From Naegleria gruberi (lineage: Eukaryota), in assembly GCA_000004985.1 (NCBI GenBank), contig GG738879.1: DNA of 64,000 nt; one strand, 5' to 3'. The notes under the pieces were generated by a model. That model did not search any database and was not told the origin of the DNA. It saw nothing but the letters and a program-made list of their open reading frames with translations. A program made the translations under genes and the position numbers. Numbering within the stretch: the first letter of the stretch is position 1; every line of letters begins with the position of its first letter. This document shows, one piece after another, positions 1-63,026 of this stretch.

Positions 1-416
1 ACCCAAACCCAAACCCAAACCCAAACCCGAACCCAAACCCAAACCCAAACCCAAACCCAAACCCAAACCCAAACCCAAACCCAAACCCAAACCCAAACCC
101 AAACCCAAACCCAAACCCAAACCCAAACCCAAACCCAAACCCAAACCCAAACCCAAACCCAAACCCAAACCCAAACCCAAACCCAAACCCAAACCCAAAC
201 CCAAACCCAAACCCAAACCCAAACCCAAACCCAAACCCAAACCCAAACCCAAACCCAAACCCAAACCCAAACCCAAACCCAAACCCAAACCCAAACCCAA
301 ACCCAAACCCAAACCCAAACCCAAACCCAAACCCAAACCCAAACCCAAACCCAAACCCAAACCCAAACCCAAACCCAAACCCAAACCCAAACCCAAACCC
401 AAACCCAAACCCAACC
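1..416. repeat. Terminal telomeric repeat tract (CCCAAA)n; G-strand TTTGGG
   Basis: About 69 perfect tandem hexamers starting at base 1, with the C-rich strand 5'->3' as expected for a left chromosome end. One variant unit CCCGAA lies near position 27. The tract ends at ...cccaaccccac before unique sequence. Confidence 0.9.
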
Positions 417-441
417 CCACAGTTCTCAAATTACTCAATCT

Positions 442-1036
442 ATGCTCCAAGAAGATGGTTTTGATATATCAGATGAAAGTTATGATATTACCTGGAATAA
501 CATTCCTATAATTACTGACCTATCTTTAGATAATATCTTTCTTAATTACTCTGCCACAGAATTACATATTCCAATGATTAGATGTCCAAAATGGATATCA
601 GCTTGGGTTAAAATTAATTCACCAAAACAAAAAGCAATACTTTTAGAAGCAATGAAAGGAAAAGATAATAGTAATACTATATTTTCTTCAGAATTAACTA
701 AATGGGTTAATTCATATTTTCCAGAAAACCAATTAGAAGAGATTAAACAGAGTTCATTATATGATAATGCTACTACTAGAAAAGAAATTAATAAGGTTAC
801 TAAATATTTGAAAAAACAATATTGTTTTAATAAGATGACAGAAACAATTGTTGACGAAGAATTAGCAAGAATGAATATTCAATTAATTAAGAAAGGCAAT
901 GCTTGGACATGGGAACAAATTTTACAAGAAGATGAAGAAGAAGATTATCAACCTCAAACAAAGAAGAAAAAGACTGTTGACGATTATTCCTCTATTAATT
1001 GGCAAGAATTACATCCTCAATTTATTAAAATTGAAG
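442..1036 (+). CDS. Subtelomeric ORF, 5' portion, truncated by an assembly gap (hypothetical protein)
   Basis: ATG at 442, open for 198 codons until the N run begins at 1037. Bases 421-753 recur identically at 3361-3693. Confidence 0.5.
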
Positions 1037-2896
1037 NNNNNNNNNNNNNNNNNNNNNNNNNNNNNNNNNNNNNNNNNNNNNNNNNNNNNNNNNNNNNNNN
1101 NNNNNNNNNNNNNNNNNNNNNNNNNNNNNNNNNNNNNNNNNNNNNNNNNNNNNNNNNNNNNNNNNNNNNNNNNNNNNNNNNNNNNNNNNNNNNNNNNNNN
1201 NNNNNNNNNNNNNNNNNNNNNNNNNNNNNNNNNNNNNNNNNNNNNNNNNNNNNNNNNNNNNNNNNNNNNNNNNNNNNNNNNNNNNNNNNNNNNNNNNNNN
1301 NNNNNNNNNNNNNNNNNNNNNNNNNNNNNNNNNNNNNNNNNNNNNNNNNNNNNNNNNNNNNNNNNNNNNNNNNNNNNNNNNNNNNNNNNNNNNNNNNNNN
1401 NNNNNNNNNNNNNNNNNNNNNNNNNNNNNNNNNNNNNNNNNNNNNNNNNNNNNNNNNNNNNNNNNNNNNNNNNNNNNNNNNNNNNNNNNNNNNNNNNNNN
1501 NNNNNNNNNNNNNNNNNNNNNNNNNNNNNNNNNNNNNNNNNNNNNNNNNNNNNNNNNNNNNNNNNNNNNNNNNNNNNNNNNNNNNNNNNNNNNNNNNNNN
1601 NNNNNNNNNNNNNNNNNNNNNNNNNNNNNNNNNNNNNNNNNNNNNNNNNNNNNNNNNNNNNNNNNNNNNNNNNNNNNNNNNNNNNNNNNNNNNNNNNNNN
1701 NNNNNNNNNNNNNNNNNNNNNNNNNNNNNNNNNNNNNNNNNNNNNNNNNNNNNNNNNNNNNNNNNNNNNNNNNNNNNNNNNNNNNNNNNNNNNNNNNNNN
1801 NNNNNNNNNNNNNNNNNNNNNNNNNNNNNNNNNNNNNNNNNNNNNNNNNNNNNNNNNNNNNNNNNNNNNNNNNNNNNNNNNNNNNNNNNNNNNNNNNNNN
1901 NNNNNNNNNNNNNNNNNNNNNNNNNNNNNNNNNNNNNNNNNNNNNNNNNNNNNNNNNNNNNNNNNNNNNNNNNNNNNNNNNNNNNNNNNNNNNNNNNNNN
2001 NNNNNNNNNNNNNNNNNNNNNNNNNNNNNNNNNNNNNNNNNNNNNNNNNNNNNNNNNNNNNNNNNNNNNNNNNNNNNNNNNNNNNNNNNNNNNNNNNNNN
2101 NNNNNNNNNNNNNNNNNNNNNNNNNNNNNNNNNNNNNNNNNNNNNNNNNNNNNNNNNNNNNNNNNNNNNNNNNNNNNNNNNNNNNNNNNNNNNNNNNNNN
2201 NNNNNNNNNNNNNNNNNNNNNNNNNNNNNNNNNNNNNNNNNNNNNNNNNNNNNNNNNNNNNNNNNNNNNNNNNNNNNNNNNNNNNNNNNNNNNNNNNNNN
2301 NNNNNNNNNNNNNNNNNNNNNNNNNNNNNNNNNNNNNNNNNNNNNNNNNNNNNNNNNNNNNNNNNNNNNNNNNNNNNNNNNNNNNNNNNNNNNNNNNNNN
2401 NNNNNNNNNNNNNNNNNNNNNNNNNNNNNNNNNNNNNNNNNNNNNNNNNNNNNNNNNNNNNNNNNNNNNNNNNNNNNNNNNNNNNNNNNNNNNNNNNNNN
2501 NNNNNNNNNNNNNNNNNNNNNNNNNNNNNNNNNNNNNNNNNNNNNNNNNNNNNNNNNNNNNNNNNNNNNNNNNNNNNNNNNNNNNNNNNNNNNNNNNNNN
2601 NNNNNNNNNNNNNNNNNNNNNNNNNNNNNNNNNNNNNNNNNNNNNNNNNNNNNNNNNNNNNNNNNNNNNNNNNNNNNNNNNNNNNNNNNNNNNNNNNNNN
2701 NNNNNNNNNNNNNNNNNNNNNNNNNNNNNNNNNNNNNNNNNNNNNNNNNNNNNNNNNNNNNNNNNNNNNNNNNNNNNNNNNNNNNNNNNNNNNNNNNNNN
2801 NNNNNNNNNNNNNNNNNNNNNNNNNNNNNNNNNNNNNNNNNNNNNNNNNNNNNNNNNNNNNNNNNNNNNNNNNNNNNNNNNNNNNNNNNNNNNNNN
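1037..2896. other. Assembly gap (run of N, 1860 nt)
   Basis: Continuous n characters. The track ORFs translated across it (X runs) are artefacts. Confidence 0.99.
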
Positions 2897-3296
2897 ACCA
2901 AACCCAAACCCAAACCCAAACCCAAACCCAAACCCAAACCCAAACCCAAACCCAAACCCAAACCCAAACCCAAACCCAAACCCGAACCCAAACCCAAACC
3001 CAAACCCAAACCCAAACCCAAACCCAAACCCAAACCCAAACCCAAACCCAAACCCAAACCCAAACCCAAACCCAAACCCAAACCCAAACCCAAACCCAAA
3101 CCCAAACCCAAACCCAAACCCAAACCCAAACCCAAACCCAAACCCAAACCCAAACCCAAACCCAAACCCAAACCCAAACCCAAACCCAAACCCAAACCCA
3201 AACCCAAACCCAAACCCAAACCCAAACCCAAACCCAAACCCAAACCCAAACCCAAACCCAAACCCAAACCCAAACCCAAACCCAAACCCAAACCCA
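2897..3296. repeat. Second (internal) telomeric (CCCAAA)n tract in the same orientation as the terminal one
   Basis: About 66 hexamer units, one CCCGAA variant, immediately after the N gap. It is followed by 64 bp of unique sequence and then the same subtelomeric block as at 421. Confidence 0.9.
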
Positions 3297-3381
3297 TAGA
3301 GATTTATCAGAAGGTTATTCTTTCATTTCTTCATTAGCTGAACCTGGAGGATGGAGTTATAGTTCTCAAATTACTCAATCT

Positions 3382-3693
3382 ATGCTCCAAGAAGATGGTT
3401 TTGATATATCAGATGAAAGTTATGATATTACCTGGAATAACATTCCTATAATTACTGACCTATCTTTAGATAATATCTTTCTTAATTACTCTGCCACAGA
3501 ATTACATATTCCAATGATTAGATGTCCAAAATGGATATCAGCTTGGGTTAAAATTAATTCACCAAAACAAAAAGCAATACTTTTAGAAGCAATGAAAGGA
3601 AAAGATAATAGTAATACTATATTTTCTTCAGAATTAACTAAATGGGTTAATTCATATTTTCCAGAAAACCAATTAGAAGAGATTAAACAGAGT
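3382..3693 (+). CDS. Second copy of the subtelomeric ORF, 5' portion, truncated by a 50-N gap
   Basis: Identical to 442-753 (offset 2940). ATG at 3382. Confidence 0.5.
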
Positions 3694-3743
3694 NNNNNNN
3701 NNNNNNNNNNNNNNNNNNNNNNNNNNNNNNNNNNNNNNNNNNN
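3694..3743. other. Assembly gap (50 N)
   Basis: n run. Confidence 0.99.
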
Positions 3744-4514
3744 TGCGCGCTTAAATGGTCCTATCAAGGTTCTCAAGAATGATAAAATCAAAATTGACCT
3801 CAGTGGTCACAAAACTGATTTCTTCCTTATTGAAAAGCCAATTACTATTGATAAGAATACAAAGAATCCAAGTCTTTGCCCAATAACCCTAATAAAAGAA
3901 AAAACCTAATTGGAGCCATCACAGAAGGACTTAGAAAAGGTGTTTCTACTTCAGATCTCATGGTTGGTGCAAGACATAAGAAAACCAACAGTTTATTTCC
4001 TTATCTACGATCTGAGGGTCTTGCTAGCAAGAATTTCACAGACACCTTATTTTCTCTGGACGAACCCATTGGTTTATCAACGATTGTTTTATTGTTTCTT
4101 TTGGAGAAATATGTAGAGTTGCGAGGAAGAATTAAAATAGAGAACTTTAATGGATTGGAGTTTTTACCGATTTTTTCCTGCAATGCAGGTTTTTTATAGG
4201 GGAGTTGTTCTACTTCAATCTCGATTTTGTAAACAACTATATTAACTCGGGACAATGCTAAATAAAGTACAATGACCCAAAAAGCAGCATTTCTGAGCAA
4301 CATACCATTTGGATGAAGAATATGTTGAGTGAGCTTTTACCTCAACTTATATTTTATTAAGTTTACAATGAAAACAAGTCCATTCTTCACTTCGATCAGA
4401 ATTAGACACAATTTTGGGCCAATATTGAGAGAACAGTTTTTCCAATTTCATGGTCTTATGACAAGATTAAAAGAGGAATTACTATTATTTGGTCCTTGAA
4501 TTGATAGAAAAGCT

Positions 4515-5160
4515 TTGAAATGTGACCCAATTTTCTATCATCATATTGAAGGTTTTATTCAAAGAAAAGATCATTATGATCCTTTCATTTTCAAACTCAC
4601 CAGTGCCATGTTAGTCATTGGTTTCAGACTTTTCGCTAGACCAGGTGAATTAGCTAGACTCAAGTGGGTTATGTTACTAAGCTTAGAAATGGTAACATCA
4701 AATTATCTCAGTGGTCGCCAAACAGATTTATGGAAAAGCCGACAAGAAATTAAACCTTCAAATTTACATCATTAATAGATCATAAAAATACAATCAATGA
4801 TAATCAATCTTCACTAAGTAATATCTTAAATAACCCAAATAAGTCAACTCGAATTCCAAACCAAACCTTTTGAGGTGTTCATTTATACTAATTTCAATCG
4901 TTGCCTTCCCCACCGCTAATTTCTTGACAATTTAAAAAGGTTCAAACATCTGGGCCCACCAAACAAACCATGGAGATTCCAAAAATCAAGTCATTTTTGA
5001 AAAATTCATTTAAATTACAGATTTATTTTTACAGAGCTCGACAGTTGACTATACAAAGTTCCAATTTAGAAACACTTTCTGTGAACGATACCTGGACCGG
5101 CATCCTCATATTCTTCCTTTGTGATCCACATCTGTTGAAAGGTAGAAAGGCTCGCTAAGA
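4515..5160 (+). pseudogene. Decayed tyrosine-recombinase (phage-integrase family; Crypton/DIRS-like) gene remnant, frameshifted
   Basis: Frame 1 (4594-4669) reads LTSAMLVIGFRLFARPGELARLKW, matching the XerD/Int box I motif (AML..L.Y.TG.R.SEL..L.W). About 95 codons downstream, in another frame, LPHR is followed by a stop near 4895-4910. About 38 codons further, in a third frame, LQIYFY sits near 5020. Spacing and order fit R...HxxR...Y, but the three blocks are in different frames with stops. Confidence 0.45.
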
Positions 5161-6199
5161 TGGAACCACCAATCCAGACAGAGTACTTTCTTTCTGGTGG
5201 AGCAACAACCTTAATCTTCATTGAGGCAGGAGCCATAGCAGTCAATTCCTTGGTCATTCTTTCAGCAATACCTTCGAACATGGTAGTACCACCAGACAAG
5301 ACAACGTTACCATACAAATCCTTTCTGATATCAATATCACATTTACCAATAGAGTTGAAAGTAGTTTCATGAACACCAGCAGCTTCCATACCAATGAAAT
5401 TAGGTTGGAACAAAACTTCTGGACATCTGAATCTTTCGTTACCAACAGTAATGACATTACCATCTGGCAATTCGTATGACTTTTCAACTGAGGATGATTC
5501 AGCAGCAACCTTCATTTCAGCTTCAAAGTCCAAAGCAATATAACAGAGCTTTTCCTTAATATCTCTGACAATTTCTCTTTCAGCAGTAGTATTGAATGAA
5601 TAACCTCTTTCCATCAAAATCTTCATCAAATAATCAGTCAAGTCACGACCAGCCAAATCCAATCTCAAAATGGCGTGTGGCAAAGCATAACCTTCATAAA
5701 TTGGAACAGTGTGAGAAACACCATCACCAGAGTCCAAAACAATACCAGTAGTTCTACCAGAAGCATACAAGGACAAGACAGCTTGAATAGCAACATACAT
5801 AGCTGGAACTGAGAAGGTTTCAAACATAATTTGAGTCATCTTTTCTCTATTGGCCTTTGGATTCAAAGGAGCTTCAGTCAACAAGACTGGATGTTCTTCT
5901 GGAGCAACTCTCAATTCATTGTAGAAAGTGTGATGCCAAATCTTTTCCATATCATCCCAATTGGTAACAATACCGTGTTCAATTGGATACTTCAAAGTCA
6001 AGATACCTCTCTTTGATTGAGCTTCATCACCAACATAGGCATCCTTATTACCCATACCAACCATGATGGACTTTTGCTTTGGTCTACCAATAATTGAAGG
6101 GAAGACAGCTCTTGGAGCATCATCACCAGCAAAACCAGCTTTACACATACCAGAACCGTTGTCAACAACGAGGGCTTGAACGTCTTCACAGAAGGACAT
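5066..6199 (-). CDS. Actin (377 aa, single exon)
   Basis: [40 protein letters not shown]... is full-length conventional actin. The true ATG is at 6199..6197 (the track ORF extends upstream through non-ATG codons). Codon usage is strongly biased (GGT, AGA, TTG, GCT, CCA). Confidence 0.97.
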
Positions 6200-6897: not shown

Positions 6898-6978
6898 GCG
6901 GTCTTGACCGAGTGGTTAAGGTGATTGACTAGAAATCAATTGGGGTGACCCGCACAGGTTCGAATCCTGTAGACCGCG
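6898..6978 (+). tRNA. tRNA-Ser (anticodon AGA), class II with long variable arm
   Basis: Acceptor GCGGTCT/AGACCGC pairs perfectly. Anticodon stem ATTGA/TCAAT with loop CTAGAAA. Variable arm TGGGGTGACCCGCA. T arm CAGGTTCGAATCCTG. Discriminator G. Confidence 0.85.
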
Positions 6979-10390: not shown

Positions 10391-11818
10391 TTACTTGACT
10401 TTAACTCTCATAGCTTCCTTTCTTGCTTGTTTTTCAAATACCATTGTTTGTTTGAATCTGTGATGAGTATCTAGCATGAGAATGCAAATTTCAGCCCCAA
10501 CATCATCAAAGAGTGAGTCGATCAAATGTTCATTTTGACCTGTTGCAAATAAATCCAAATGATTCTTAACCTTGTCGGACATGTGTTTGCTAAGGTTAAC
10601 TGATTTGTCGCCTCTTACATCGAGATAATCAGTGTAAATTTCAAAAGCAATTTCATACTTTTTCTTTTCAATATCGTACAAGTCCTTTTCATGGTATTTC
10701 TTCTTCTTCTTTTTATCATTGTCACTGTTTTCACTTGATTCACTATCCAATAAATATTCTTGAATTTCAAAACTCTTCTCACATAACAATTTGTAATCGG
10801 AAATCTTTTCAAGAATTTGGAAATTTTCAAGACTCATTTCGGTTTTACAAAACTTTCTAAAGAGTTCTCTTAGGTTTGGATTGTCCATGGTATCCATCAA
10901 CAAAAATGCTCTTACTTGATTCAACTTTCTAGTGTTAGAAGCATCCTTCTTCACTGAGGCAATAAAGGAAGATATAATAACTGGAATAACCATAAAGAGT
11001 GACATACAGATAACAGCAAGAGAAATGGACAAGACAATTGTTGATACATTTTGACTATTCTTCTTCATAGCAGCAACATAGTCAACCATTATTTGAAATT
11101 CTGTCCCATAAGAGTCCAAGTAAAGATGATATTGATCTGAATTGAGTAATTCCATTGCTTGAGAATAGTTTCCTTGTTTTGAAAGTGCGATAGCCGTTTG
11201 CTCGTAAGTAATTGCTTTTGTTGTATCCAATTGAGCTGATGTCTTTCCATGGAGGGCAGCTTCTCTGACAGATTCTGGAACCAGTGCCTTGAATCTGGCT
11301 GAACTATTACTGAATTTGAGTAAATAATCCACATAGAGAGTTCCATACTCTTTAGTTAAGGTCAAATTGTTACCAGAAAAAACTGCTGCACGTGCTGATG
11401 AAATGCTATATTGTCTATAGACTGTGGTGTCAGTGTCTAGATTGTCCCACAACTCGTTAAACTCTGTCTGAAGAACAAATGAAGCAATAATAAGAGATGC
11501 CAAAATCATGAAGGCACTCAAATTGATGACCAAAGAAGCAACGCTGAATAATCTGATCTTGGAAATGTGTAAAGTACCAATACATGTATCAATTTTAAAA
11601 AGAATGTCAGACTCTTTGCTTTTAACAGATGATGAATGTGGGGTCTTGATAGAGGTAGTTACTGATTTGCTTGTATTTGCATCATCCAACTTGTATTGCA
11701 CAGTGGTTGACATTCGTGGAGAGAGGGGAGGGCTTGTGGTACTGCTTCCAACATTCTCTAAATTGATTTCGTGATGTGAAGAACTGCTTGGTGAGTGAAT
11801 GGTTGTCGATATGTGCAT
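10391..11818 (-). CDS. Receptor-like RGS protein
   Basis: C-terminus LRELFRKFCKTEMSLENFQILEKISDYKLLCEKSFEIQEYL...YEIAFEIYTDYLDVRGDKSVNL is an RGS domain. Topology is Ser/Thr-rich N-terminus, TM (SVASLVINLSAFMILASLIIASFVL), about 150 aa extracellular helical region, second TM (VSTIVLSISLAVICMSLFMVIPVII), then RGS. First in-frame ATG is at 11818; the track ORF starts at a TTG at 11899. Confidence 0.8.
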   Translation of the reverse strand: MHISTTIHSPSSSSHHEINLENVGSSTTSPPLSPRMSTTVQYKLDDANTSKSVTTSIKTPHSSSVKSKESDILFKIDTCIGTLHISKIRLFSVASLVINLSAFMILASLIIASFVLQTEFNELWDNLDTDTTVYRQYSISSARAAVFSGNNLTLTKEYGTLYVDYLLKFSNSSARFKALVPESVREAALHGKTSAQLDTTKAITYEQTAIALSKQGNYSQAMELLNSDQYHLYLDSYGTEFQIMVDYVAAMKKNSQNVSTIVLSISLAVICMSLFMVIPVIISSFIASVKKDASNTRKLNQVRAFLLMDTMDNPNLRELFRKFCKTEMSLENFQILEKISDYKLLCEKSFEIQEYLLDSESSENSDNDKKKKKKYHEKDLYDIEKKKYEIAFEIYTDYLDVRGDKSVNLSKHMSDKVKNHLDLFATGQNEHLIDSLFDDVGAEICILMLDTHHRFKQTMVFEKQARKEAMRVKVK

Positions 11819-12142
11819 ATCGTCTGAATTGTTTTTTTTTGATGGTTTGAATTGTCCACTCTCATTTGCTCTTTTAAATTGATGTGCTGACCTGGACAAC
11901 CCTTTTAAAGGAAAGTTATAAAGAAAAGCTCCTCTAATTTGTAATTTAAAATGAGAATAGGAAGGAGGATCCTCCTATTGTACATCCTTTTTAATGTCGT
12001 TTCTGGATGTAAAATATTGCAAATAGCAACTGGTGATAGAAAAAAGTTAGCACTTTCATGTAAAACTTCAAAGCTCGATTGACTCTTTGAGAAATGTGTT
12101 AGCAGCAAGTGCTCATATGTCTAGTGTTTTGTAATCAAATCG

Positions 12143-14272
12143 TTATTTACCAGCACGTTTACAACAACATTTAAATACTCTCCTAATAAACCTTCTTGGA
12201 CTCTTCTTACCAATAATAAATCTCAATCCAAAATAAGCAAATATTCTACAGAGAAACATTATTACAATTAAGCACGAAACATAAATCCACAATACACTAT
12301 AAGATCCCTCAATACCGTAAACACTCTCTAAAAAGTATGAACCATTGGTAAAATGGTTAGCAGGAATAGTTCCAGTCTGGTTGGAATAATAAACCTCTGC
12401 AAATTCATTAATCATCATACATCTGAATCCATAGAAAACATAGGACAAATAACTAATCCATTGAGTGTAAGGTGTTTCGAATATTCTATTCTTTCCAAAG
12501 GATCCACTCGCAAATATTGTGAACATGTTCAATACAGAACTCATAAAGGCAAGTATATATGGTATAGGAAAGAAGCAAACCAAGAATTCAGCAAAGCTCT
12601 GACAAGTCAAATGATAAACCACAAAGATAAACATGAAGGTGAAAATACGTCCTACAGATAAATATAATCCAACCATGAAATAGACAACAAGACCAAATAT
12701 GAGAGGAAATATAGAGTATGTAATAGTATTCACCACCGTTCTGGCAATATAGTACGCAGACATTGGGTAAAAAGTTGATTTTCTCTCCTGTTGCATACCA
12801 GGTAATTGACTAATAAATGTTTTCAAGGTTAAACCAAAGGTTAAGGAAATGCTAAAATTCAAAAATGAAAATACTCTAGATCTGTAGTACATATCAGTTG
12901 GCTCTAGTTGAAAGTATATCAATCCAATTCCAAAACCAATCAGTAAATTTTCCAAAAATGGTGACAATACATCTTGTCGCCAATTCCTCTTCTTCAATCT
13001 AAATGCTCTCTCAATCAGTATCAAGATTGTATAAAAGTAATTGGAGTGATACTTTTCTGTTTGAATATTATCAACCTTATTGTGTGAATAGGTGGACAAA
13101 ATTTCATTAGCTTGAGGTTTGTAAAAAGTATCCAATCTTAACTTGAATTCTTCTGCAAGATTATCCTTCTTGAGAGATATTTGTTCACTATCGTGGGGAA
13201 TAAACTCGGAGAATAGTTGCAACTCTTTCTCATTTCCATTCTTTAATATTTTGTGAAAGAGCAACAATTCTAGAATATTGCTGACAATGTTTTGTGTTTG
13301 CACGGTTAGAGGAATTTCCAAAATATTAGAAAAGTAATGACTTAACAAGTCAATTTTTCCAAAATAAATTTGTTGTCCCTTATCAAGTAAACAAACATAA
13401 TCAAATAGTGAAATTTCTCTAATAGAAGGTTTATGGACAGTCATGACAATACTCACACCAAAACAAGCAACTCTTTTCAAAGATTGTACAAGAAGAAACG
13501 ACTCTGCAAACTCCAAATCATCAGTAGGTTCCTCCAATAAAACAACTCGATGATAGAACACATTTTGAATAGCAATGGTCAATCTCCTCTTTTCCCCTCC
13601 AGATAGTGATGGATAGAATTTGTTCTGCACTTCCTTCAATCGATAACAATCCAACAATAGTTCTAATCTCTCTTGCCTATTTGTCCAAACCTTATGTTTC
13701 GGATGCATTGGAAGTCTCAAATTGATGGCATATTGAAGAATTTCATTCACAGTTAATGAATTAAAGTAGGGAGCATAATATTCCTTTGATACATGAGATA
13801 CCAATGCTCTGTACTTGTTTGTTGTTGATTTGTATAGCTGCTTTTCACTATTCATCACCACTTCTCCATTCAACAGAATATCACCATCAAAATTATTGGA
13901 CAAGGCAGCTTCTCTCATGGCCAAAACTCTCAACAATAAACTCTTCCCAGAAGATGATGGACCACATATTGCTGTAATAGAACCTGGTTTAGCAAATCCG
14001 TAAATATTCTGAAGAAATGGTTTTTTGGAGGGGAAGGAAATGTTTCTCCACTCTATGCAACATTGTTGTTCAAAGAGAAGAGTTGCTTGTTTGTCTTCTG
14101 GTGGTTGATTGATAGTAGGGGTGTTTGATAGTACTTCACTTGTTGTTGTTGTTGTTATTGATTGTGATGATGAAGAATGACCAGTGGAGGGAATTTCATC
14201 TTGTTGATGATGTTGTTCTGATGGTAGAAGATGATCATTCTTGATATTAATTATTACAGTTTCATCCACCAT
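12143..14272 (-). CDS. ABCG-type half transporter (NBD followed by TMD)
   Basis: Walker A GPSSSGKS, ABC signature LSGGEKRRL, degenerate Walker B VVLLEEPTDD, followed by about 6 predicted TM helices. ATG at 14272. Confidence 0.85.
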   Translation of the reverse strand: MVDETVIINIKNDHLLPSEQHHQQDEIPSTGHSSSSQSITTTTTSEVLSNTPTINQPPEDKQATLLFEQQCCIEWRNISFPSKKPFLQNIYGFAKPGSITAICGPSSSGKSLLLRVLAMREAALSNNFDGDILLNGEVVMNSEKQLYKSTTNKYRALVSHVSKEYYAPYFNSLTVNEILQYAINLRLPMHPKHKVWTNRQERLELLLDCYRLKEVQNKFYPSLSGGEKRRLTIAIQNVFYHRVVLLEEPTDDLEFAESFLLVQSLKRVACFGVSIVMTVHKPSIREISLFDYVCLLDKGQQIYFGKIDLLSHYFSNILEIPLTVQTQNIVSNILELLLFHKILKNGNEKELQLFSEFIPHDSEQISLKKDNLAEEFKLRLDTFYKPQANEILSTYSHNKVDNIQTEKYHSNYFYTILILIERAFRLKKRNWRQDVLSPFLENLLIGFGIGLIYFQLEPTDMYYRSRVFSFLNFSISLTFGLTLKTFISQLPGMQQERKSTFYPMSAYYIARTVVNTITYSIFPLIFGLVVYFMVGLYLSVGRIFTFMFIFVVYHLTCQSFAEFLVCFFPIPYILAFMSSVLNMFTIFASGSFGKNRIFETPYTQWISYLSYVFYGFRCMMINEFAEVYYSNQTGTIPANHFTNGSYFLESVYGIEGSYSVLWIYVSCLIVIMFLCRIFAYFGLRFIIGKKSPRRFIRRVFKCCCKRAGK

Positions 14273-14527: not shown

Positions 14528-15757
14528 TTATTTAGAAAAGTAGGAAAGGAATTCGCTGTCTTCCAAATTATCGGCAACTCTAGTGATTGGTACTTGTGGT
14601 AAATACCCTCTAGTGCTAACATATTTCATGGCGATTGGCATGGCCTTTGACTTCTCTTCCTTTGAACTATCTTCACCAACCCAAATGTAAACATGATTAC
14701 CAACATCCAAGATGTAAACATCTTCACCCTTTAACAAGTCAGTCTTGATGGCATCTCCTTCAGAAACAAGAGTACACAACAATTCACCAGAACTATCACT
14801 AACTTTGAACAATCTCTTCTGACGACAATCTTGTGGAATTGATGAAGTAATATCTGGTACTTCTTCTTGAATATCACTTGGAGAACCTTGCAATAAAGAG
14901 AAGAATTCTTCTTCAGCCTTTAAATCTCTCTCTTCTCTAGAGCCTTCTCCTACCTTGAAAACTTGAGCAGAGTCAGAACGATCATCTTGCATTGATGTAA
15001 CAATGGCAGCACATTTAAACTTTTCTTGAATGGAGGCTTTTGGACCAACCCAAACGAAAATCTTGGTAATAGCATCAAGAATGAAGGCATCTCCCTTGTT
15101 GAGTGAACCACAAGTTGGTTTAACTTCATAGACACGAACATTGGATCTTCCCTTTACGTGCCACAATCTTGTTGTATCAGAGGCTGTTCTTCTACCCTTC
15201 TCAAGTGATTGATCAACATGGTTAAAACCAGTTTGAACACCACCATGTAAGACACGAATACCATTACTCTTCTTAAAGTATGAGAGGAAGAGATTTGATT
15301 CAACACCTTGAACTTCGCGATGTTGTTTTGGCAAAGTTCCCAAAAAGTCATCCAATTCAACAGTCTTATAAGCAGCAACACCTTGTTCATCAATACTGGT
15401 GCATTTGCCCAACCAAAAGTGAATATCATAACTCTTGATAGCTTCTCCTCTGTCATTCTTTGCTTCAATGGTACGGAGAACAATGTAACTATCACCATCA
15501 AAGAATACACCATAATCATTCAATGGTACTGGTTTAATTTTGAATTGTTCAACACGCCAAATTTGAATACCATCAGTTTTACCAGCTTGCTTCCATTCAT
15601 CTTCGGTACGAGCAGCTTTAACACGAGATTCAAGATCGAGTGATGTTCCAATCAAGGCACAGTTAGAATCAGCTAATTTAACTTGGTATGGCATGATGAT
15701 TAATTTTTTTAGTTTTTGATCTTGTTGTTGATGACAACCTGATATGTTGCTTGACAT
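14528..15757 (-). CDS. Gelsolin-family actin-severing protein with three gelsolin repeats (severin/fragmin-like)
   Basis: Repeated gelsolin segments (FFDGDSYIVL, HFWLGKCTSIDEQG, GDAFILD..KIFVWVGPKAS, EDVYILD..HVYIWVG). 409 aa, no villin headpiece. ATG at 15757. Confidence 0.85.
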   Translation of the reverse strand: MSSNISGCHQQQDQKLKKLIIMPYQVKLADSNCALIGTSLDLESRVKAARTEDEWKQAGKTDGIQIWRVEQFKIKPVPLNDYGVFFDGDSYIVLRTIEAKNDRGEAIKSYDIHFWLGKCTSIDEQGVAAYKTVELDDFLGTLPKQHREVQGVESNLFLSYFKKSNGIRVLHGGVQTGFNHVDQSLEKGRRTASDTTRLWHVKGRSNVRVYEVKPTCGSLNKGDAFILDAITKIFVWVGPKASIQEKFKCAAIVTSMQDDRSDSAQVFKVGEGSREERDLKAEEEFFSLLQGSPSDIQEEVPDITSSIPQDCRQKRLFKVSDSSGELLCTLVSEGDAIKTDLLKGEDVYILDVGNHVYIWVGEDSSKEEKSKAMPIAMKYVSTRGYLPQVPITRVADNLEDSEFLSYFSK

Positions 15758-30064: not shown

Positions 30065-30135
30065 TCGGGTGTGGTATAGTGGTAGCATTCCAGACTGTCA
30101 CTCTGGCGACCCGGGTTCAATTCCCGGCACTCGAG
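30065..30135 (+). tRNA. tRNA-Asp (anticodon GTC)
   Basis: Acceptor TCGGGTG/CACTCGA (one G-U pair). D arm GTATAGTGGTAGCAT. Anticodon stem CCAGA/TCTGG with loop CTGTCAC. T arm CCGGGTTCAATTCCCGG. Discriminator G. Confidence 0.85.
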
Positions 30136-39826: not shown

Positions 39827-40862
39827 ATGCTTTCTTTTTTACGCAAGGCTTTGACACACAACAATAACAAGAATAATAATAACAATAATAATAATAATAA
39901 TAATACTGATAATAATTATTTTCTTCCCACTGATAGTTTAATAATAATATTTCAATTTCTCAATCAACAAGATTTTATTAAAATTTCATCTGTTTGTAGA
40001 TATTGGAGATTTGTTGTTCAACAACCATTCCGAAAGGAATTTACCAATTATATATTTTACTCTTCTTATTCAATAATTTATGGTAGATGTATTATCAATG
40101 CATTTGAATTTTTTAATTTCTTTTCTTCCATAACATTAGATTTGCATAATACTGTACCTGAATCAACATTTAAAACTCTACTTTCTTCAATGAAATTACA
40201 AAGTTTATTTATAGATTCATGTGTTGTTAAAAATAATATACCATTCAATTCTGTGAAACAATCTAATATTACTGAATTAGGATTAAATTGTTTAATGAAA
40301 AAGAAAGATTTACGTGCTTTATTTACTGTACTTCCAAATTTGAAATATTTAAGTTTAGGAATGAATGTTACAGAATCTTTAATTAGTACAGAATCATTTC
40401 TGAGTACATATTGTCATAAATTAGAAACACTCCATTTACAATTATTACCTGAAAATCAAAAAAAAATTGCAAAATTATTAAATGGAATATTTAATCCATC
40501 AACAACAACAATATCCAATCTCATTGATATTAGAATATTTGTAACAGATAATAATCCAACAAGTAATAGAAAATTAAATAATTTTACATTTGATTTTAAT
40601 TCATTTCCATATTTAAAATATTTATTTCTTGATATTACCTATATTTATACATTGGAATCAATTAGTAATGTATTAAATTCAAATAATATTTCAAAATTAC
40701 AAGAATTTGGATTTGGAACTATTAGAAAATCTATTGAAAAATTACAATTTAATTCTAGTGAAAATTTTAAAAATTTAAAAAAATTATTTTTAAATAGAAC
40801 CGANATGATGACAAATATAGATAATCTTCCTTCATTAGAATTATTATATATAGATGAATATG
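39827..40862 (+). CDS. F-box / leucine-rich-repeat protein with poly-Asn tract; 3' end lost in a 50-N gap
   Basis: NKNNNNNNNNNNNT tract. F-box LPTDSLIIIFQFLNQQDFIKISSVCRYWRFVV. LRR-like L..L..L repeats. Single N at 40803 and gap at 40863-40912. Confidence 0.6.
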
Positions 40863-40912
40863 NNNNNNNNNNNNNNNNNNNNNNNNNNNNNNNNNNNNNN
40901 NNNNNNNNNNNN
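40863..40912. other. Assembly gap (50 N) inside a duplicated LRR gene
   Basis: n run. Confidence 0.99.
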
Positions 40913-42436: not shown

Positions 42437-43007
42437 AGGTTAATGAAAAAGAAAGATTTACGTGCTTTATTTACTGTACTTCCAAATTTGAAATATTTAA
42501 GTTTAGGAATGAATGTTACAGAATCTTTAATTAGTACAGAATCATTTCTGAGTACATATTGTCATAAATTAGAAACACTCCATTTACAATTATTACCTGA
42601 AAATCAAAAAAAAATTGCAAAATTATTAAATGGAATATTTAATCCATCAACAACAACAATATCCAATCTCATTGATATTAGAATATTTGTAACGGATAAT
42701 AATCCAACAAGTAATAGAAAATTAAATAATTTTACATTTGATTTTAATTCATTTCCATATTTAAAATATTTATTTCTTGATATTACCTATATTTATACAT
42801 TGGAATCAATTAGTAATGTATTAAATTCAAATAATATTTCAAAATTACAAGAATTTGGATTTGGAACTAATAGAAAATTTATTGAAAAATTACAATTTAA
42901 TTCTAGTGAAAATTTAAAAAATTTAAAAAAATTATTTTTAAATAGAACCGAAATGATGACAAATATAGATAATCTTCCTTCATTAGAATTATTATATATA
43001 GATGAAT
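42437..43007 (+). repeat. About 570-bp segmental duplicate of 40292-40862
   Basis: Aligned by eye with only a handful of substitutions. Copy 1 is interrupted by an N gap at exactly the point where copy 2 continues. Confidence 0.8.
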
Positions 43008-43738
43008 ATGAAAAAAAGTTTTATTCCACTGCAAACTATTCAAAACCATGGAATTTAGCATCTAATGTGAAAATGCCATCTCTAAAATATTTACATTTAA
43101 GTCTTATAAATGAAACTCATTTACCTGATAGATTAAATGTGGAATCATTTAAAAATATTAAATATTTTTATTTTGAATCTCAATATAATATTGATTTATC
43201 AGAATTGAGTAAATTAAATTTAGAAATATTAATTCTTAAAATTTCTTTAAAATATAACAAGAATATATTTCATCACATTTCTAAAATTTCAACCTTGAGA
43301 GATTTAACATTTCGTAAGCCTATTTGGGATATTGATTTGAAATTACTTTGTAAATTACCAAATTTAGAATATCTTAATATTAGATTGGAATTTAAAAGTG
43401 AAATATCTTTTACTTTTAATTCACTAACTACACTCTCAATTTATTCAGATAATTTGAAAGGATTAAACTTTTTTCAAATATCAAATTTACCAAAATTGAA
43501 AACTTTAATAATTCGTAATGATTTGGATAATAACCATACGTGGTGGTTGCAACCATTATTTCCAAATTTACAAATAATTAAAGCAAGTTATAACAGTTTT
43601 GGAATATTTTTAGCATCTCAATATAATGATGGTATGAATTTTGGTGAGTATGAGGTTTCACAAAGAACAGCAACTCATTTACAAAATGAATATGTATGGC
43701 TCTTTCCAAAAAAATTTATTTTTGGCAATGCTCAATAA
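42443..43738 (+). CDS. LRR protein, paralogue / second copy of the 39827 gene (C-terminal LRR portion complete)
   Basis: 42437-43007 is near-identical (few mismatches) to 40292-40862. It continues with further LRR-like repeats to a stop at 43738. The true 5' end is uncertain because the ATG at 42443 is internal in copy 1. Confidence 0.55.
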   Translation: MKKKDLRALFTVLPNLKYLSLGMNVTESLISTESFLSTYCHKLETLHLQLLPENQKKIAKLLNGIFNPSTTTISNLIDIRIFVTDNNPTSNRKLNNFTFDFNSFPYLKYLFLDITYIYTLESISNVLNSNNISKLQEFGFGTNRKFIEKLQFNSSENLKNLKKLFLNRTEMMTNIDNLPSLELLYIDEYEKKFYSTANYSKPWNLASNVKMPSLKYLHLSLINETHLPDRLNVESFKNIKYFYFESQYNIDLSELSKLNLEILILKISLKYNKNIFHHISKISTLRDLTFRKPIWDIDLKLLCKLPNLEYLNIRLEFKSEISFTFNSLTTLSIYSDNLKGLNFFQISNLPKLKTLIIRNDLDNNHTWWLQPLFPNLQIIKASYNSFGIFLASQYNDGMNFGEYEVSQRTATHLQNEYVWLFPKKFIFGNAQ

Positions 43739-53386: not shown

Positions 53387-53457
53387 TGCGTCGACCGGGA
53401 ATTGAACCCGGGTCACGGCGATGGCAACGCCGTATTCTACCACTAAACCATCGACGC
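53387..53457 (-). tRNA. tRNA-Gly (anticodon GCC)
   Basis: Reverse complement GCGTCGATGGTTTAGTGGTAGAATACGGCGTTGCCATCGCCGTGACCCGGGTTCAATTCCCGGTCGACGCA. Acceptor GCGTCGA/TCGACGC pairs perfectly. Anticodon loop TTGCCAT. Confidence 0.9.
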
Positions 53458-57200: not shown

Positions 57201-57274
57201 GCCTTCCTAGCTCAGTTGGCAGTAGCGCTGTCCTAGTAAGACAGAGGTCTTGGGTTCGATTCCCAAGGGAGGCA
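57201..57274 (+). tRNA. tRNA-Thr (anticodon AGT)
   Basis: Acceptor GCCTTCC/GGGAGGC (one G-U pair). Anticodon stem CTGTC/GACAG with loop CTAGTAA. T arm CTTGGGTTCGATTCCCAAG. Discriminator A. Confidence 0.8.
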
Positions 57275-57313
57275 TCTTTTAGCTGGATTAAGGTTTCATT
57301 CTGCCTTTATTTA

Positions 57314-60069
57314 CTATTTAGTGTCCAATCGATCTTCAAAAGCCCATGAGCTTCGCATACTAACATCGTCCACCATTTCTCTGAGTTTTTCCAATCTCAT
57401 ATTCGCCACGAAATCAGTCGGATCTCTGCTCACAACCTTTCCAAATAACTCAATCGCCTTCACCACATCTTCACTTTTAAGATTATTCATAGTTGAGCTC
57501 ATGTTCATGGAATCCACCACCCCAAAAGTGTGTTTCTGTCCATCAATTGTAAGCTTATCTGGAACGCATTCACCATGAGAGTAACTTCCAAACATTATCT
57601 CGATTGCATCTTCAAAGTTGGTCTTGTTTTTGGCTTTCAATTCGTGCGAGTTATTCGAAACTGTTGAAGGTGTTCTTGTGAGAATTTCAAATACCCAACT
57701 TGCTTGTTGTCTTCCAACAACTGCTAAGCGGCCTATTTTTCTTTGATTCCTCTTTGGAAGAAGTGGAGATGTTTCAATTACTTCCTTCGTAACGAGAATG
57801 TCAACTCTGTAATGTTTAGTCAAAGATTCCAAACGAGCTGCCAAATTGACAGTATCTCCAATAATGGTTGGATCAACTCTTTGATCTTCACCAATCAATC
57901 CAACTGCACATTTACCTCTTGCAATTCCAATTCCAACTCTAACTGTTGGATATTTCTTACTCTTATTGAATTCTAATAATCTTCTTTGTATTTCCATTGC
58001 TGCCAAAACAGATTGACCAGGAGTTAAAAACAATGCCAAAATACCATCACCCAAATACTTGTCAATATATCCACCATGTTCTCTCACAACTGGTCCAACC
58101 AATGACAGATAATTATTCAAAAATTCAAAAGTCTCATCTGGTGTCATCTTTTCACAAATACTTGTATAACCTCTAATGTCAGCAAACAACACATCCAATT
58201 CCATTTCAAAGTAATCTCCGTGCGTAAGGTCCATTACACTCTCCTTCTGAACAATCGACATGAATTCCTTTGGAACAAATTTGTGAACTGTCTCATTGTG
58301 CAATCTTAACAAGTCCTGAATGGTCCTCGAAAAGATTAACGACATAATTGATGAAAGGAAAATTCCCATAATTCCACCCACTGTATATCCTATCAATTCC
58401 TTAATAGCAAGCCCCTCTGATTCATTCTGATCCAACAAAATATCATCCCTAATCATATTCTCAATAGTTTTCAATTCATCGATTTTTTGTGTAATATTCC
58501 AGAACCAATTTTGAGCTGTAAAAATTGTCTTGGCATAGGTCAAATTGAAAGGAGAGGCCAATATGTATGATTCCATCATGTTTGTAACGGTCGCATTATT
58601 CACACTCAATGAAAGTTGCTCAAAATATTTGAAAGATCCAACATTTCTAGATTTGGCATCAATGATTGTGAACATGGTATCAAATCTTGATCTCAAATAC
58701 AAGTAACTGACATAGAAATCATTGGTAAAGGCACCAGCAGCTAATCCATTACTCACAGTAGCTCTCTTCTGACCCAAACTTTCCTTCATGACCATTAGGA
58801 GTGAATAAATATTCGATTTGATAAGAAAATCTGGATCTCTACCTAAACTTGTCGCCACATTTACAATATCAATCATATTCTTAATGATGGTAGTATAGAA
58901 ATCGAGAGCTACCTTCGCCACTGGAAATTTCAATGTTGAAATATTGTAACGATGAGCAGAGAGTATATGAAACGATGCATCAATCATATCGAGAGTTGGT
59001 TCAACTTTTTGTTTGGCAATTGTTTCGTCTTTTGCATAGGTAAAATAATCAATAATCCCCTTTTTTGTCGCATTCCAATTCAGTAATTGTAAATCTGTTG
59101 CATTTCGTTGTAAATCAAGCTCAGTAGTAAATGAGGTACCTTTCGAACCTAAATATAAAGAAGAAGAACCTCTTTCTTTTTGAATTTCATGAATAATATC
59201 CGAAATACCAGTTGTGAATATGGTAAGAAGAGTGTTGGCATCAGATTCTTTCACTCTCTTTCATCAAATTCAGTTTCGAATAATTACAATAAGAAACTTA
59301 CCAAAACTGAATAATTAATTAAAATTCCTTCAAATACTATCATACAAGCTAAAGAAAAGATAAAAATCAGAAGTAATTTGATAGAAAGTGGAATCTTTGC
59401 CAATATTTTTGATAAAGTCCACTTTCTTGCTTCCTTTTTCGAGACAACACTATACGAAATGTTAGAAGAAATACTGGAAGAAACTCCCATCATATTCTTT
59501 TCATATGAAGACCTAGACCCTGTATCCATTGTTCCTTCCTCAAGTGTTGTCAAATAATCTCCCTTCATATCATTTTCCTCAGCTTGTTTCGAATAAGTAC
59601 TTAGTGAACTAACTGATTTCTCCTTTTGCAATAAACTAATTTCCTTAGAACTTCTCAATGAATTCATTGTTGAACCTTGTTTTAGAAGAAAGTTGGTGTT
59701 GAGTGTTTTTTGAGTTCGAACCGAAACTAAACTTGGTTTACTCGCACTAGAACTCATGGCACCTAGATTAAGAGGAGTAATTTGATTTCGTTTAGGAGGA
59801 TTACTTTCAGGTCGAGAAACATGATGCTGATGAAGAAATAAATCTTCTGACTTGTTAGAAACTTTAGACGAATCGCCTACTATTGTATTCCTATCGTGCT
59901 GTTCTTCGTTCATTATTGAGGAAAGTCTTTGATGTTGTATGGATGATGTTTCGTCTATTGAATTCGAAAGTAATTCATCAGTTGTAGCACGGTGATGGTG
60001 TTCATGCGGAGAAGATGAATTACTACTACTACCGGAAGAAGATGTATGTTGCTTATACTTGTCAGACAT
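57314..60069 (-). CDS. Receptor-type class III nucleotidyl cyclase (Lys/Asp specificity residues suggest adenylyl), 2 exons, about 903 aa
   Basis: Exon 1 is 59302..60069 (Ser/His-rich N-terminus then TM LLLIFIFSLACMIVFEGILI). A 44-nt intron spans 59258..59301 (GTAAGT..GAAAG). Exon 2 is 57314..59257: about 270-aa helical sensor region, second TM, then a cyclase homology domain (DVLFADIRGYTSICEKM..YIDKYLGDGILALF..RVDPTIIGDTVNLAARLES). The track ORF 57314..59254 starts at a GTG, not ATG. Confidence 0.85.
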
Positions 60070-60422
60070 GCTATAGTCAATTTTTCAAAGAACTCATGCA
60101 CAGCTGTTTCGAATGAAATGTTTTTTTAAGAGATACTTAAAGTATAGTTCTCTAAGATTCGGTTAATTGTTGGTGAAAACGTAAAAGAACTGAATCATAT
60201 TCTTAATGTTTTATGAGAGAGAAACTTCAACGAATCAACCCTTGGATAGAATAATCGAAACAGATATCTCCTTCGCTTCCTATACATAATAAAGGAAAGA
60301 ATTGTAATTTTTAGTAGTGACTACTACCGCTCTGCTCATCTTACGAATATTCAATCTAGAATTTCCCTCCAAAAAACATCACCCTCTCAAAACAAACCAC
60401 ACCAATTGACCATTCCAATCAT

Positions 60423-63026
60423 TTATTTAAAATCAAGTCGATCTTCAAATGACCACATTGTATTGGCACTCAAAATTTCTTCCAATTTTGTTATTCTCAT
60501 TTGAACTAAATAATCCTGCGAGTCAACTTCTTGAATTTGTTTCAGATAATCAAGTGCTTGAATTGGATTAAACAAATCCTTTTCATACATCATGGCAATG
60601 GATGCTTCGAATTTATCCTTATGTTTCTTCTTACTGTCAACTGAACCAAAAGATGGAGATTCTGTCAAAATTTCAAATATGGTGCATGATTGTTGTCTTC
60701 CAACAACTGCAATCTTTCCAATATTTCTGTATTTGGCATTGGATAAAAGTGGTGATGAATCAATTACATCTCTTGTTACCATAATGTCAACTCTGTAATG
60801 TTTAGTCAAAGATTCCAAACGAGCTGCCAAATTGACAGTATCTCCAATTATGGTTGGATCAACTCTTTGATCTTCACCAATCAATCCAACTGCACATTTT
60901 CCTCTTGCAATTCCAATTCCAACTCTAACTGTTGGATATTTCTTACTCTTATTGAATTCTAATAATCTTCTTTGTAATTCCATTGCTGCTAAAACAGATT
61001 GACCAGGAGTTAAAAACAATGCCAAAATACCATCACCCAAATACTTGTCAATATATCCACCATGTTCTCTCACAACTGGTCCAACCAATGACAAATAATT
61101 ATTCAAAAACTCAAACGTCTCATCTGGTGTCATCTTTTCACAAATACTCGTATAACCTCTAATGTCAGCAAACAACACATCCAATTCCATTTCAAAGTAA
61201 TCACCATGATTCAAATCCATGACGCTATCCTTTTGAACAATCGACATGAATTCCTTTGGAACAAACTTGTGAACTGTCTCATTGTGCAACCTTAACAAAT
61301 CTTGAATAGTCCTTGAAAAGATTACAGCCAAAATGATAGAAGCAATTACAACACTGAAACCACCAACACAATAACCCATAAGAGAATCTTTGGCCGATGA
61401 TTCAATACTTTGCGAGTTATTAAATATGCCATCTCTAATGTTATCTTCCACTACTTTTAATTCATCAATCTTGGTAGTCACATTCCAAAACCAATTCTCT
61501 GCAGAAAACACCGATTGGGCTTTTGTTAAATTGAATGGTGAAGACAACATGTATGATTCCATCATATCAACAACAGCGTTACTCTTTACATATCCAGTTA
61601 ATTGTTGATAGTATCCAAGACTATCCCTGTTCCTCGATTTGGCATCAATGACCATGTACATGGTATCATATCTTGACTTTAAATATAAAAAGTTTACATA
61701 GAGATCATTGGTGAAAGCACCAGCAGCCACAGCATTACTACCAACAGCTCTTCTCTGACCTAAACTTTCCTTCATGACCATCAAGAGTGTATAGATGTTG
61801 GTCACGACGAGGAATTTACGATCTTCAGCCAAAGCAGCCAATACAGACACCACATCAATCATATTCTTAATGCAATTTGTGAAAAAATCCAATGCAGGTT
61901 TGGCCACTGGAAATTGTAAATTTGAAATCTTTTCTCTGTGAGAAGGCAGGACATTCAAATAGATATTCTCAATAATTTGAATAACTGTATACGTCTGATT
62001 CCTTGTAATTTCATCTTGTTCTATCAGTAAATCGAAAAATTCTGCAATAGAAGCCCTAGTTTCATTCCATTTAGAGAGGGCAAGGTTTGTGGCATTCCTC
62101 TGTGTAGCCAATTCAACCACAAACTTTTTACCTTTACCACCAAGAAAGAGTGATGAAGATCCACGTTCCTTTTGCAGTTCGTGGATGATTTGGGCAATAT
62201 TGGTGGAGAAGGTCGTTAATTTCTGAATACTCTGTGCTTCAAGAACTCGCTATATAGAGTAAGGGCCAACACCATGTTATTGTTATTGTGGAAAATCAGA
62301 GTTGTAATGAAACATCAATAAGAAAAATTGACAAATACCCAATTAAGGGATGAAACATACCTTTGCAGAATCATTCACTAATATGGCTCCAAAAACCACA
62401 AGCGAAATGATTGATAAAATCACAATAAAGAAAAGTTTCACAGGAAGAGGAATCATGGCAACGAGTTTTGAAAAGCTTACTCTCTTCTTTCGTTGCTGGT
62501 TTCTACTGACGATAGAGTAAGAGACTACTGATGAGGATATCGATTTCTGCGTGATTGACGTTCTCATCTTTTCCATGTCATCAAATGGATCTGTCTTGGC
62601 AAGATTTTGAAGGTTATTATCAAAGTTTTTAGAACTGGTGATACTGGATAGGAGTGAGCTCTGCGTTTTAACTGCAACTGTCTTGGATTCCTTCTTTTGA
62701 GTAGAGTTGTTTTTATAGTGATGATTCGGTTTGGATGAATTCATGGGAGAAACCTTTGCCTTAGAAGAGAAGAATATTGAGGTACTTAAGGTATTTGTTG
62801 TATTCCTTGTTGATTCTTCTTGTTGTTGCTCTTCATCTTGTTGTTGTTCTTCTTCAATGGTTGTACTCTTTTGATACGAAGGAGCATTTCCTTCCTCACT
62901 ATATGGTTTCTGAACGGGTGAGGGATCCTCTTCCAGAGTAGTAGTCCCACTCACAGTGTATCTATTCTCTCTATGTGAGAGATCCTGATGATGTTCCTCA
63001 TGATGTTGATGCTGATGATTTGTCAT
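60423..63026 (-). CDS. Tandem paralogue of the receptor-type class III cyclase, 2 exons, about 830 aa
   Basis: Exon 1 is 62361..63026 (true ATG at 63026; the track start at 63059 is TTG), ending ..FGAILVNDSAK. A 111-nt intron spans 62250..62360 (GTATGT..TATATAG). Exon 2 is 60423..62249, beginning RVLEAQSIQKLTTFSTNIAQIIHELQKERGSSSLF. The intron position and phase are identical to the paralogue (both second exons begin RV..). The catalytic domain is about 90% identical to gene 1. Confidence 0.85.

Follow-up and report, generated by a model that had tools for sequence, protein, structure and literature searches.

Two same-orientation telomere tracts and a telomere-abutting gene at an assembled chromosome end of Naegleria gruberi

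Introduction

The Naegleria gruberi sequence GG738879.1 (assembly GCA_000004985.1) opens with a telomere tract, and beyond a scaffold gap a second tract of the same repeats follows in the same orientation; in both places the repeats are joined to a copy of one open reading frame (ORF), here termed ORF-A. This arrangement raises the question of whether the inner tract is a genuine interstitial telomere or a product of the assembly. Here, we addressed it in a stretch of 64,000 nucleotides (hereafter the window, numbered from its first base). Our analysis favors an artifact, in which two versions of one N. gruberi chromosome end were probably placed head to tail by the scaffolder. It further revealed that the block adjoining both tracts is a protein-coding gene under purifying selection. 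To our knowledge, the telomere biology of Heterolobosea is almost unexplored.

The two tracts and their contigs

Both tracts carry the C-rich strand on the + strand, which is the polarity expected of a left chromosome end, and both are long, near-perfect arrays of the clade's telomere hexamer. Tract 1, (CCCAAA)n, begins at the first base of the window and extends to 419/420 (annotated as 1-420, with its 5' end at the window start). Tandem Repeats Finder (TRF) reports 69.8 copies with 99% matches, comprising 67 perfect CCCAAA units and one CCCGAA variant at 26-31, and the inner end of the tract is irregular (CCCAAC CCCAC at 410-420). Tract 2, also (CCCAAA)n, spans 2897-3296 and begins directly after the 1860-N gap; TRF counts 66.5 copies, again with 99% matches. 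Of its units, 64 are perfect, a CCCGAA variant occupies 2981-2986, and the first is missing one C. It terminates in CCCAT, after which the sequence continues with AGAGATTTAT. The repeat segment at 1-341 is identical to that at 2956-3296. The CCCGAA variant, present exactly once per tract, lies 63 perfect units from the inner end of tract 1 (junction 1) and 51 from that of tract 2 (junction 2), and its occurrence in both may reflect shared descent, a recurrent telomerase error or a Sanger artifact near read starts. In the remaining 60 kb of the window, neither strand contains any other stretch of at least two telomere units.

Two runs of N, at 1037-2896 (1860 N, a size estimate) and 3694-3743 (50 N), divide this end into contig 1 (1036 bp, with a non-repeat part of 616 bp at 421-1036), contig 2 (797 bp, about one Sanger read) and contig 3, which continues inward. 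Positions 421-753 and 3361-3693 are identical at 333 of 333 bases, a match that chance cannot produce; identity stops exactly at 420/3360 with no leftward extension, and the 64 bp at 3297-3360 are confined to the copy on contig 2. The right end of contig 2 falls inside this shared block. An interstitial tract would be expected to run into sequenced DNA on both sides and to be short or degenerate. On the left of tract 2 there is only the 1860-N gap, and the tract itself consists of 66 units that are 99% perfect. A sequence-only reading of the window had already described the two tracts, the gaps, the 333-bp identical block and the 64 extra bp, all of which lie where it had placed them; its sizes hold overall, except that contig 1 has 616 bp outside the repeats rather than 620 and the tracts are not wholly perfect.

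The actin product encoded at 5066-6199 (- strand) is residue-for-residue identical to N. gruberi EFC36529.1, EFC37355.1, EFC38601.1 and EFC45736.1. An earlier survey (Fulneckova et al. 2013, PMC3622300) had already put forward TTTGGG, the G-strand form of the unit, as a candidate N. gruberi telomere, based on the genome assembly. The organism and the hexamer at assembly termini are what our data share with that survey, which appears to give the motif only; the structure of the junctions, the gene next to them and the duplication of the tract are described here. The contig L007 of Willaertia magna likewise ends in (TTTGGG)162 at 11493-12466, and the unit is therefore shared within the Vahlkampfiidae. 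The proposal that TTTGGG is taxonomically informative is borne out in this respect, for a unit that is itself not new. Paramecium telomeres consist of G3T3/G4T2. A ciliate macronuclear end, in which TAA and TAG would encode Gln, is ruled out by the intact standard-code genes in the window, including actin, and by the identity of that actin with the N. gruberi protein.

Two probable versions of one chromosome end

Uncollapsed haplotype or variant contigs give rise to false tandem or segmental duplications in draft shotgun assemblies. The present locus has the same features: the near-identical copies are split by N gaps, their ends coincide with contig and gap boundaries, and one of the contigs is very small, read-sized and without a left flank, and ends in the shared block. 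Unlike in the usual case, the two versions differ at the telomere junction only and not by single-nucleotide polymorphisms or small insertions and deletions. We therefore regard two versions of one chromosome end, stacked by the scaffolder, as the probable origin of the layout, with contigs 1 and 2 representing one putative locus.

The proposed course of events is as follows. The window would start at the left chromosome end, both tracts being the TTTGGG telomere joined to ORF-A. The sequenced DNA would have contained two versions of this end, carried either by two homologs or by sub-clonal variants. In the ancestral version, the repeats would join the gene at 3296/3297, whereas in the derived version the old telomere and 64 bp would have been lost and the end re-capped by telomerase at 420/421 with irregular repeats. 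Reads discordant at the junction would have led a draft Sanger assembler to retain two small contigs (1036 and 797 bp), and the scaffolder, using inward-pointing mate pairs, may then have dropped the smaller contig into the sized gap between contigs 1 and 3. The outcome would be an apparent internal telomere, the simplest underlying layout being contig 1, approximately 2.7 kb of unassembled DNA and contig 3. Naegleria species have been described as heterozygous diploids with variable ploidy (PMC9928731).

The gap sizes bear directly on the placement of contig 2. Three missing pieces would have to fit into the 50-N gap at 3694-3743: a minimum of 284 bp of ORF-A already seen in copy 1, a further stretch of about 390 bp by which ORF-A should continue judging from its homolog (130 further codons in the metagenomic protein P0009), and at least 450 bp encoding a recombinase N-terminus. 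Since more than 1 kb must fit into 50 N, the gap is not literal and the placement of contig 2 has no metric support; the same 50-N value recurs at 40863-40912 and is therefore evidently a floor or default value. The distance from contig 1 to contig 3, about 2.7 kb, fits the rest of ORF-A together with the 5' portion of a DIRS-like element. Such elements are repeated and are typically left unassembled.

Several points weigh against this explanation. The allelic or sub-clonal status of the two versions, deduced from assembled sequence, is putative. Taken literally, the scaffold puts contig 1 about 2.9 kb further out than contig 2, so that if both belong to the same locus at least one mate-pair distance must be wrong by about 2.9 kb. 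The shared CCCGAA variant and the 341 identical bp of repeats are not predicted by a wholly new telomere at junction 1. Finally, relatives hold internalized telomere repeats, both at this same gene boundary (in the metagenome contigs L004 and L005) and near a W. magna contig end (L006), and real interstitial tracts therefore do occur in the clade. If the tandem layout is an artifact, the reference scaffold needs correction, and the two contigs are direct evidence of polymorphism in where the telomere joins N. gruberi chromosome ends.

The inner and outer telomere-gene junctions

Junction 1 (420/421) lies 64 bp further into the gene than junction 2 (3296/3297). At both, the repeats abut sequence that is uninterrupted elsewhere, namely the 64 bp of copy 2 in the case of junction 1 and the long W. 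magna ORF in the case of junction 2, as this ORF runs upstream through the codons homologous to the outer junction. Read on the G strand, junction 1 passes from GAGAACT into GTGGGGTTGGG(TTTGGG)n; the first repeats are irregular, and microhomology amounts to at most 1 nt. The combination of irregular repeats, 64 bp retained in copy 2 and homology reaching further still in W. magna appears typical of breakage followed by new telomere formation. Junction 1 would thus be a derived end, produced by terminal loss and subsequent telomere addition, presumably by telomerase healing.

Junction 2 presents a different picture. In frame, copy 2 of the window reads ACC CAA ACC CAT AGA GAT TTA TCA across this boundary. 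The metagenomic relative L004 reads ACC CAA ACC, lacks the fourth codon and continues with AGA GAT TTA TAT, while the corresponding W. magna codons, inside the long ORF, are GAT TAT TAT GAT AGA GAA ATT TCA. The boundary between repeats and gene thus agrees within 3 nt between copy 2 and the metagenomic relative, whose ORF-A proteins are only 52% identical. We estimate the probability that two independent random healing events would coincide so closely in a gene of about 2.5 kb at roughly 0.002. Junction 2 should therefore be an inherited old event, a preferred site or the terminus of a defined unit; judged from these alignments, it is old and not a random addition site, and only junction 1 looks like fresh healing. 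The sequence-only reading had suggested telomere addition at variable positions. The two junctions 64 bp apart are indeed there, but a distant relative has the outer one at the same place to within 3 nt. While this outer boundary is kept across two taxa, the inner boundary of ORF-A falls in the gaps, and contig 3, on the inner side of copy 2, contains no telomere repeats.

In the metagenome contigs, the boundary is marked by an internal 15-nt telomere relic, ACCCAAACCCAAACC (2.5 units), located 5' of the ORF-A homolog at L004 325-345 and L005 137-157; the 324 bp upstream of it are neither coding nor telomeric. L005, although 97% identical to L004, contains in-frame stops and represents a second, degenerating copy or strain. 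Directly after the stop codon of its ORF-A homolog, at L005 1304-1673, a repeat unit of about 112 bp occurs three times with 72-76% identity.

ORF-A is a gene under purifying selection

ORF-A is read on the + strand with its sense running inward from the telomere, and is open under the standard code. Copy 1 (421-1036, 205 codons) has a 5' end 64 bp shorter than that of copy 2 and enters the gap; copy 2 (3297-3693, 132 codons) consists of the unique segment 3297-3360 and the shared segment 3361-3693. When merged, the two copies provide at least 226 stop-free codons in DNA with 66% A+T. The first ATG in this frame lies at 442 in copy 1 and at 3382 in copy 2, while codon conservation already starts at the telomere boundary. 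Comparison with the metagenomic homolog on L004 yielded a nonsynonymous rate (dN) of 0.34 and a synonymous rate (dS) of 1.06, thus dN/dS = 0.32, and all insertions and deletions are in frame. Selection has therefore maintained ORF-A as a coding gene, which sets it apart from a decaying remnant. The block that had been taken for a conserved subtelomeric element is consequently a selected gene rather than a non-coding repeat.

No annotated N. gruberi protein matches ORF-A, either in a word-index protein search or in an exhaustive phmmer search. The latter, run against 1.84 billion representatives, returned three matches, P0006, P0007 and P0008. P0006 and its cluster member P0009 originate from two metagenome assemblies of the European Nucleotide Archive and are 50-52% identical to ORF-A; P0007 (414 aa) and P0008 (844 aa) are both from W. 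magna and are 26-30% identical. The homologous part of P0008 is C-terminal, at about residues 485-700 of one uninterrupted ORF. The word-index search found nothing with ORF-A and, with P0008, only P0008 itself, and scans of JGI metagenomes with a protein pattern and with a conserved 30-nt DNA pattern yielded no further relatives. ORF-A belongs to a previously unannotated, telomere-linked gene family restricted to Naegleria and Willaertia.

The function of the encoded protein was approached through domain and structure searches. ORF-A and its homologs have no match in Pfam, PHROGs or the PDB sequences, and NCBIfam gave ORF-A only a weak match to replication factor C (E 0.01, 14.6 bits against a cut-off of 502 bits) and P0008 none. 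The AlphaFold2 (AF2) model predicts a helical core and a beta-hairpin with moderate confidence (predicted local distance difference test [pLDDT] 60-81, residues 52-168). A Foldseek search of this model against the PDB returned nothing below E = 3, its scattered winged-helix matches not being significant. No reverse transcriptase (RT) or recombinase domain, as a telomere-specific mobile element would encode, is detectable in ORF-A. The possibility that ORF-A is the gag or RT of the adjacent DIRS-like element was rejected, as ORF-A resembles neither the gag-like ORF nor the RT ORF that an intact relative of that element carries on the metagenome contig L002; moreover, it is the 112-bp tandem repeats, and not an RT, that follow the ORF-A homolog in L005.

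The ORF-A family near Willaertia telomeres

In W. magna (GCA_041937235.1), the ORF-A family is found near two contig ends. On L007, 247 bp separate the end of the P0007 gene from the terminal (TTTGGG)162, and this copy is frameshifted. On L006, the P0008 gene lies 3.4 kb from the contig end, and an internal TTTGGG run of about 5 units is located at 15316-15352, 550 bp from that end. The two copies are 74% identical at the nucleotide level, with the identity restricted to the gene. The family is therefore telomere-linked in two genera. The orientation differs, the 3' end of the gene facing the telomere in Willaertia and the 5' end in the N. gruberi window. The regions examined were L007 10001-12466 and L006 10001-15905, in which the ORF-A homologs make up the C-terminal part of an ORF of about 840 aa; a 64-bp tandem repeat is present between gene and telomere.

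A Crypton-like tyrosine recombinase in the N-terminal half of P0008 would suggest a telomere-targeting element of the Crypton or TATE kind, but every quantitative test was negative. Pfam, PHROGs and NCBIfam gave no match to this half, comparison with DIRS recombinases gave an hhalign probability of 0.2% and a Smith-Waterman z of about 0 against shuffles, and the corresponding AF2 model has a pLDDT of 34. A motif-like R..K..HxxR..H/W..Y pattern, visible only by eye, is all that is left of the resemblance, and this candidate was rejected.

Other explanations of the tandem layout

The first alternative, likewise raised by the sequence-only reading, is that the layout is real, such that two head-to-tail units of telomere repeats plus ORF-A exist and 2897-3296 is a genuine interstitial tract. 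We consider this unlikely, although it accounts for several observations. A second unit could have been copied onto an older capped end, by break-induced replication or by unequal exchange between ends; alternatively, ORF-A could reside in an element that associates with telomeres by being added to the ends of chromosomes. The scaffold order and orientation are exactly as this explanation predicts, and the span 1-3693 corresponds, by our own reckoning, to about one small-insert clone. Copying between tracts would fit the 341-bp identical repeat segment with its CCCGAA variant. In L004 and L005, this same boundary of ORF-A bears 2.5 units, preceded by 324 bp of other DNA, and about 5 units lie 550 bp from the W. 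magna contig end (L006 15316-15352). Precedents exist in yeast, where Y' arrays have internal telomere tracts, and in Leishmania braziliensis, where TATE elements stand in tandem within telomere repeats (PMC2696322, PMC6681497). Against a real array, the 66 near-perfect units of tract 2 have no sequenced left flank, whereas the internal tracts of the relatives measure just 15-37 bp. In addition, contig 2 is read-sized, contig 3 on the inner side of copy 2 is devoid of telomere repeats, and the 50-N gap after copy 2 is short by more than 1 kb, which renders the local scaffold metric unreliable. False tandem duplicates of variant contigs, moreover, are common in draft Sanger assemblies.

The second alternative, that two different chromosome ends with the same telomere-adjacent gene were linked through mate pairs in shared subtelomeric or DIRS-like repeats, is in our view somewhat less probable again. 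ORF-A homologs near two different W. magna contig ends reveal that the family is telomere-linked and can be multi-copy, and the repeated DIRS-like debris just inside the gap could mislead mate-pair linking. However, a single locus accounts more simply for two copies that are identical at 333/333 bases and whose truncation points are no more than 64 bp apart. The N. gruberi proteome includes no annotated ORF-A protein, which also speaks against many copies, if weakly, since collapsed or gapped copies would escape annotation. Head-to-tail misassembly, as raised by the sequence-only reading, accordingly stands as the most likely origin of the layout, with versions of the same end favored over the two different chromosomes proposed there.

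A further, improbable reading is that ORF-A and its telomere boundary form the outer module of a self-propagating telomere-associated unit of vahlkampfiid amoebae, with the tracts as a real head-to-tail array; ORF-A itself has no detectable RT or recombinase domain. Were it true, the unit would be comparable in function to the Leishmania TATE arrays or the yeast Y' elements, and the boundary conserved to within 3 nt, which directly follows the ..DYYD codons of the Willaertia homolog, would be an element terminus or a preferred addition site rather than the relic of one ancient break.

Comparison with known telomere systems

Chromosome healing, i.e. de novo telomere addition after terminal loss, occurs in yeast, Plasmodium, ciliates and human terminal deletions. 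The locus resembles it in that the repeats at junction 1 sit on sequence that is internal elsewhere and begin with irregular units, and in that the end cuts a gene short. It differs in that there are only two junctions, one of them evolutionarily conserved rather than sporadic, and in that the action of telomerase is here deduced from the junction sequence.

Yeast Y' elements and fungal telomere-linked helicases are subtelomeric families or units with internal telomere tracts. The ORF-A family similarly lies 0.25-3.4 kb from telomere repeats in two genera, with short internal tracts at unit boundaries. In contrast, ORF-A is unrelated to these elements in sequence, has no helicase domain and is oriented oppositely in Naegleria and Willaertia.

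The TATE elements of L. braziliensis are telomere-associated tyrosine-recombinase retroelements that form tandem arrays at chromosome ends, at a precise position relative to the telomere hexamer (PMC2696322, PMC6681497). A discoban protist host and the debris of a tyrosine-recombinase retroelement beside the end are common to both systems. Unlike in TATE, no RT or recombinase domain is detectable in ORF-A, from which the DIRS-like fragments stand apart, and only the outer boundary is visible here.

The telomere unit, junction heterogeneity by loss and healing, and false tandem duplicates as an assembly artifact are already known. New is that this end abuts a selected, unannotated gene whose family is telomere-linked in two genera, that the telomere/gene boundary is conserved over deep divergence, and that the sequenced strain has a second, shorter junction alongside the first. 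The Naegleria form of the gene starts exactly at the telomere repeats, and this boundary has outlived about 50% protein divergence under purifying selection. These findings raise the questions of how a gene with only telomere repeats upstream is expressed, and of whether heterolobosean chromosome ends are built from a specific, possibly mobile, unit. Their significance would grow if the array were real, or if every Naegleria copy of ORF-A began at telomere repeats.

DIRS-like debris and the first genes inward

Contig 3 starts in the middle of a gene, a DIRS-like tyrosine recombinase. The pseudogene fragment at 3745-4061 (+) is 95-98% identical at the amino acid level to N. gruberi EFC41855 (aa 161-204 and 259-309); it is frameshifted and has lost about 54 internal codons. 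An older DIRS-like tyrosine-recombinase fragment follows at 4409-4733 (+); it is frameshifted and matches EFC46444 aa 87-193 at 50-71% identity. One of the matching N. gruberi predicted proteins carries PF00589, and a DIRS-like nature is supported for 3745-4733 only. The intact relative on L002 has, in this order, a gag-like ORF, an RT (RVT_1, with a faint Dam-like methyltransferase match) and a recombinase. DIRS1-like sequences or remnants had been noted earlier in N. gruberi (PMC3266345).

The first intact cellular gene inward is the intronless actin gene (5066-6199, -), which lies about 1.3 kb inside the assembled chromosome end. As one actin product corresponds to four separate GenBank entries, the genome must contain several identical actin copies. 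The tRNA genes of the window are Ser-AGA (6898-6978, +), about 7 kb from the telomere, Asp-GTC (30065-30135, +), Gly-GCC (53387-53457, -) and Thr-AGT (57201-57274, +).

Further inward, a direct repeat of 571 bp (40292-40862 and 42440-43010) is 99.1% identical, with 5 mismatches; its first copy contains a single N at 40804 and ends exactly at the 50-N gap at 40863-40912. As evidence for the stacking of haplotypes it was discarded as uninformative, because the upstream flanks are unrelated, and it would represent either a repeat-induced contig break or a recent paralog. A second direct repeat of about 666 bp (57673-58338 and 60660-61324) is 91% identical and lies in the minus-strand ORFs at 57299-59260 and 60390-63086, which are probably tandem paralogous genes.

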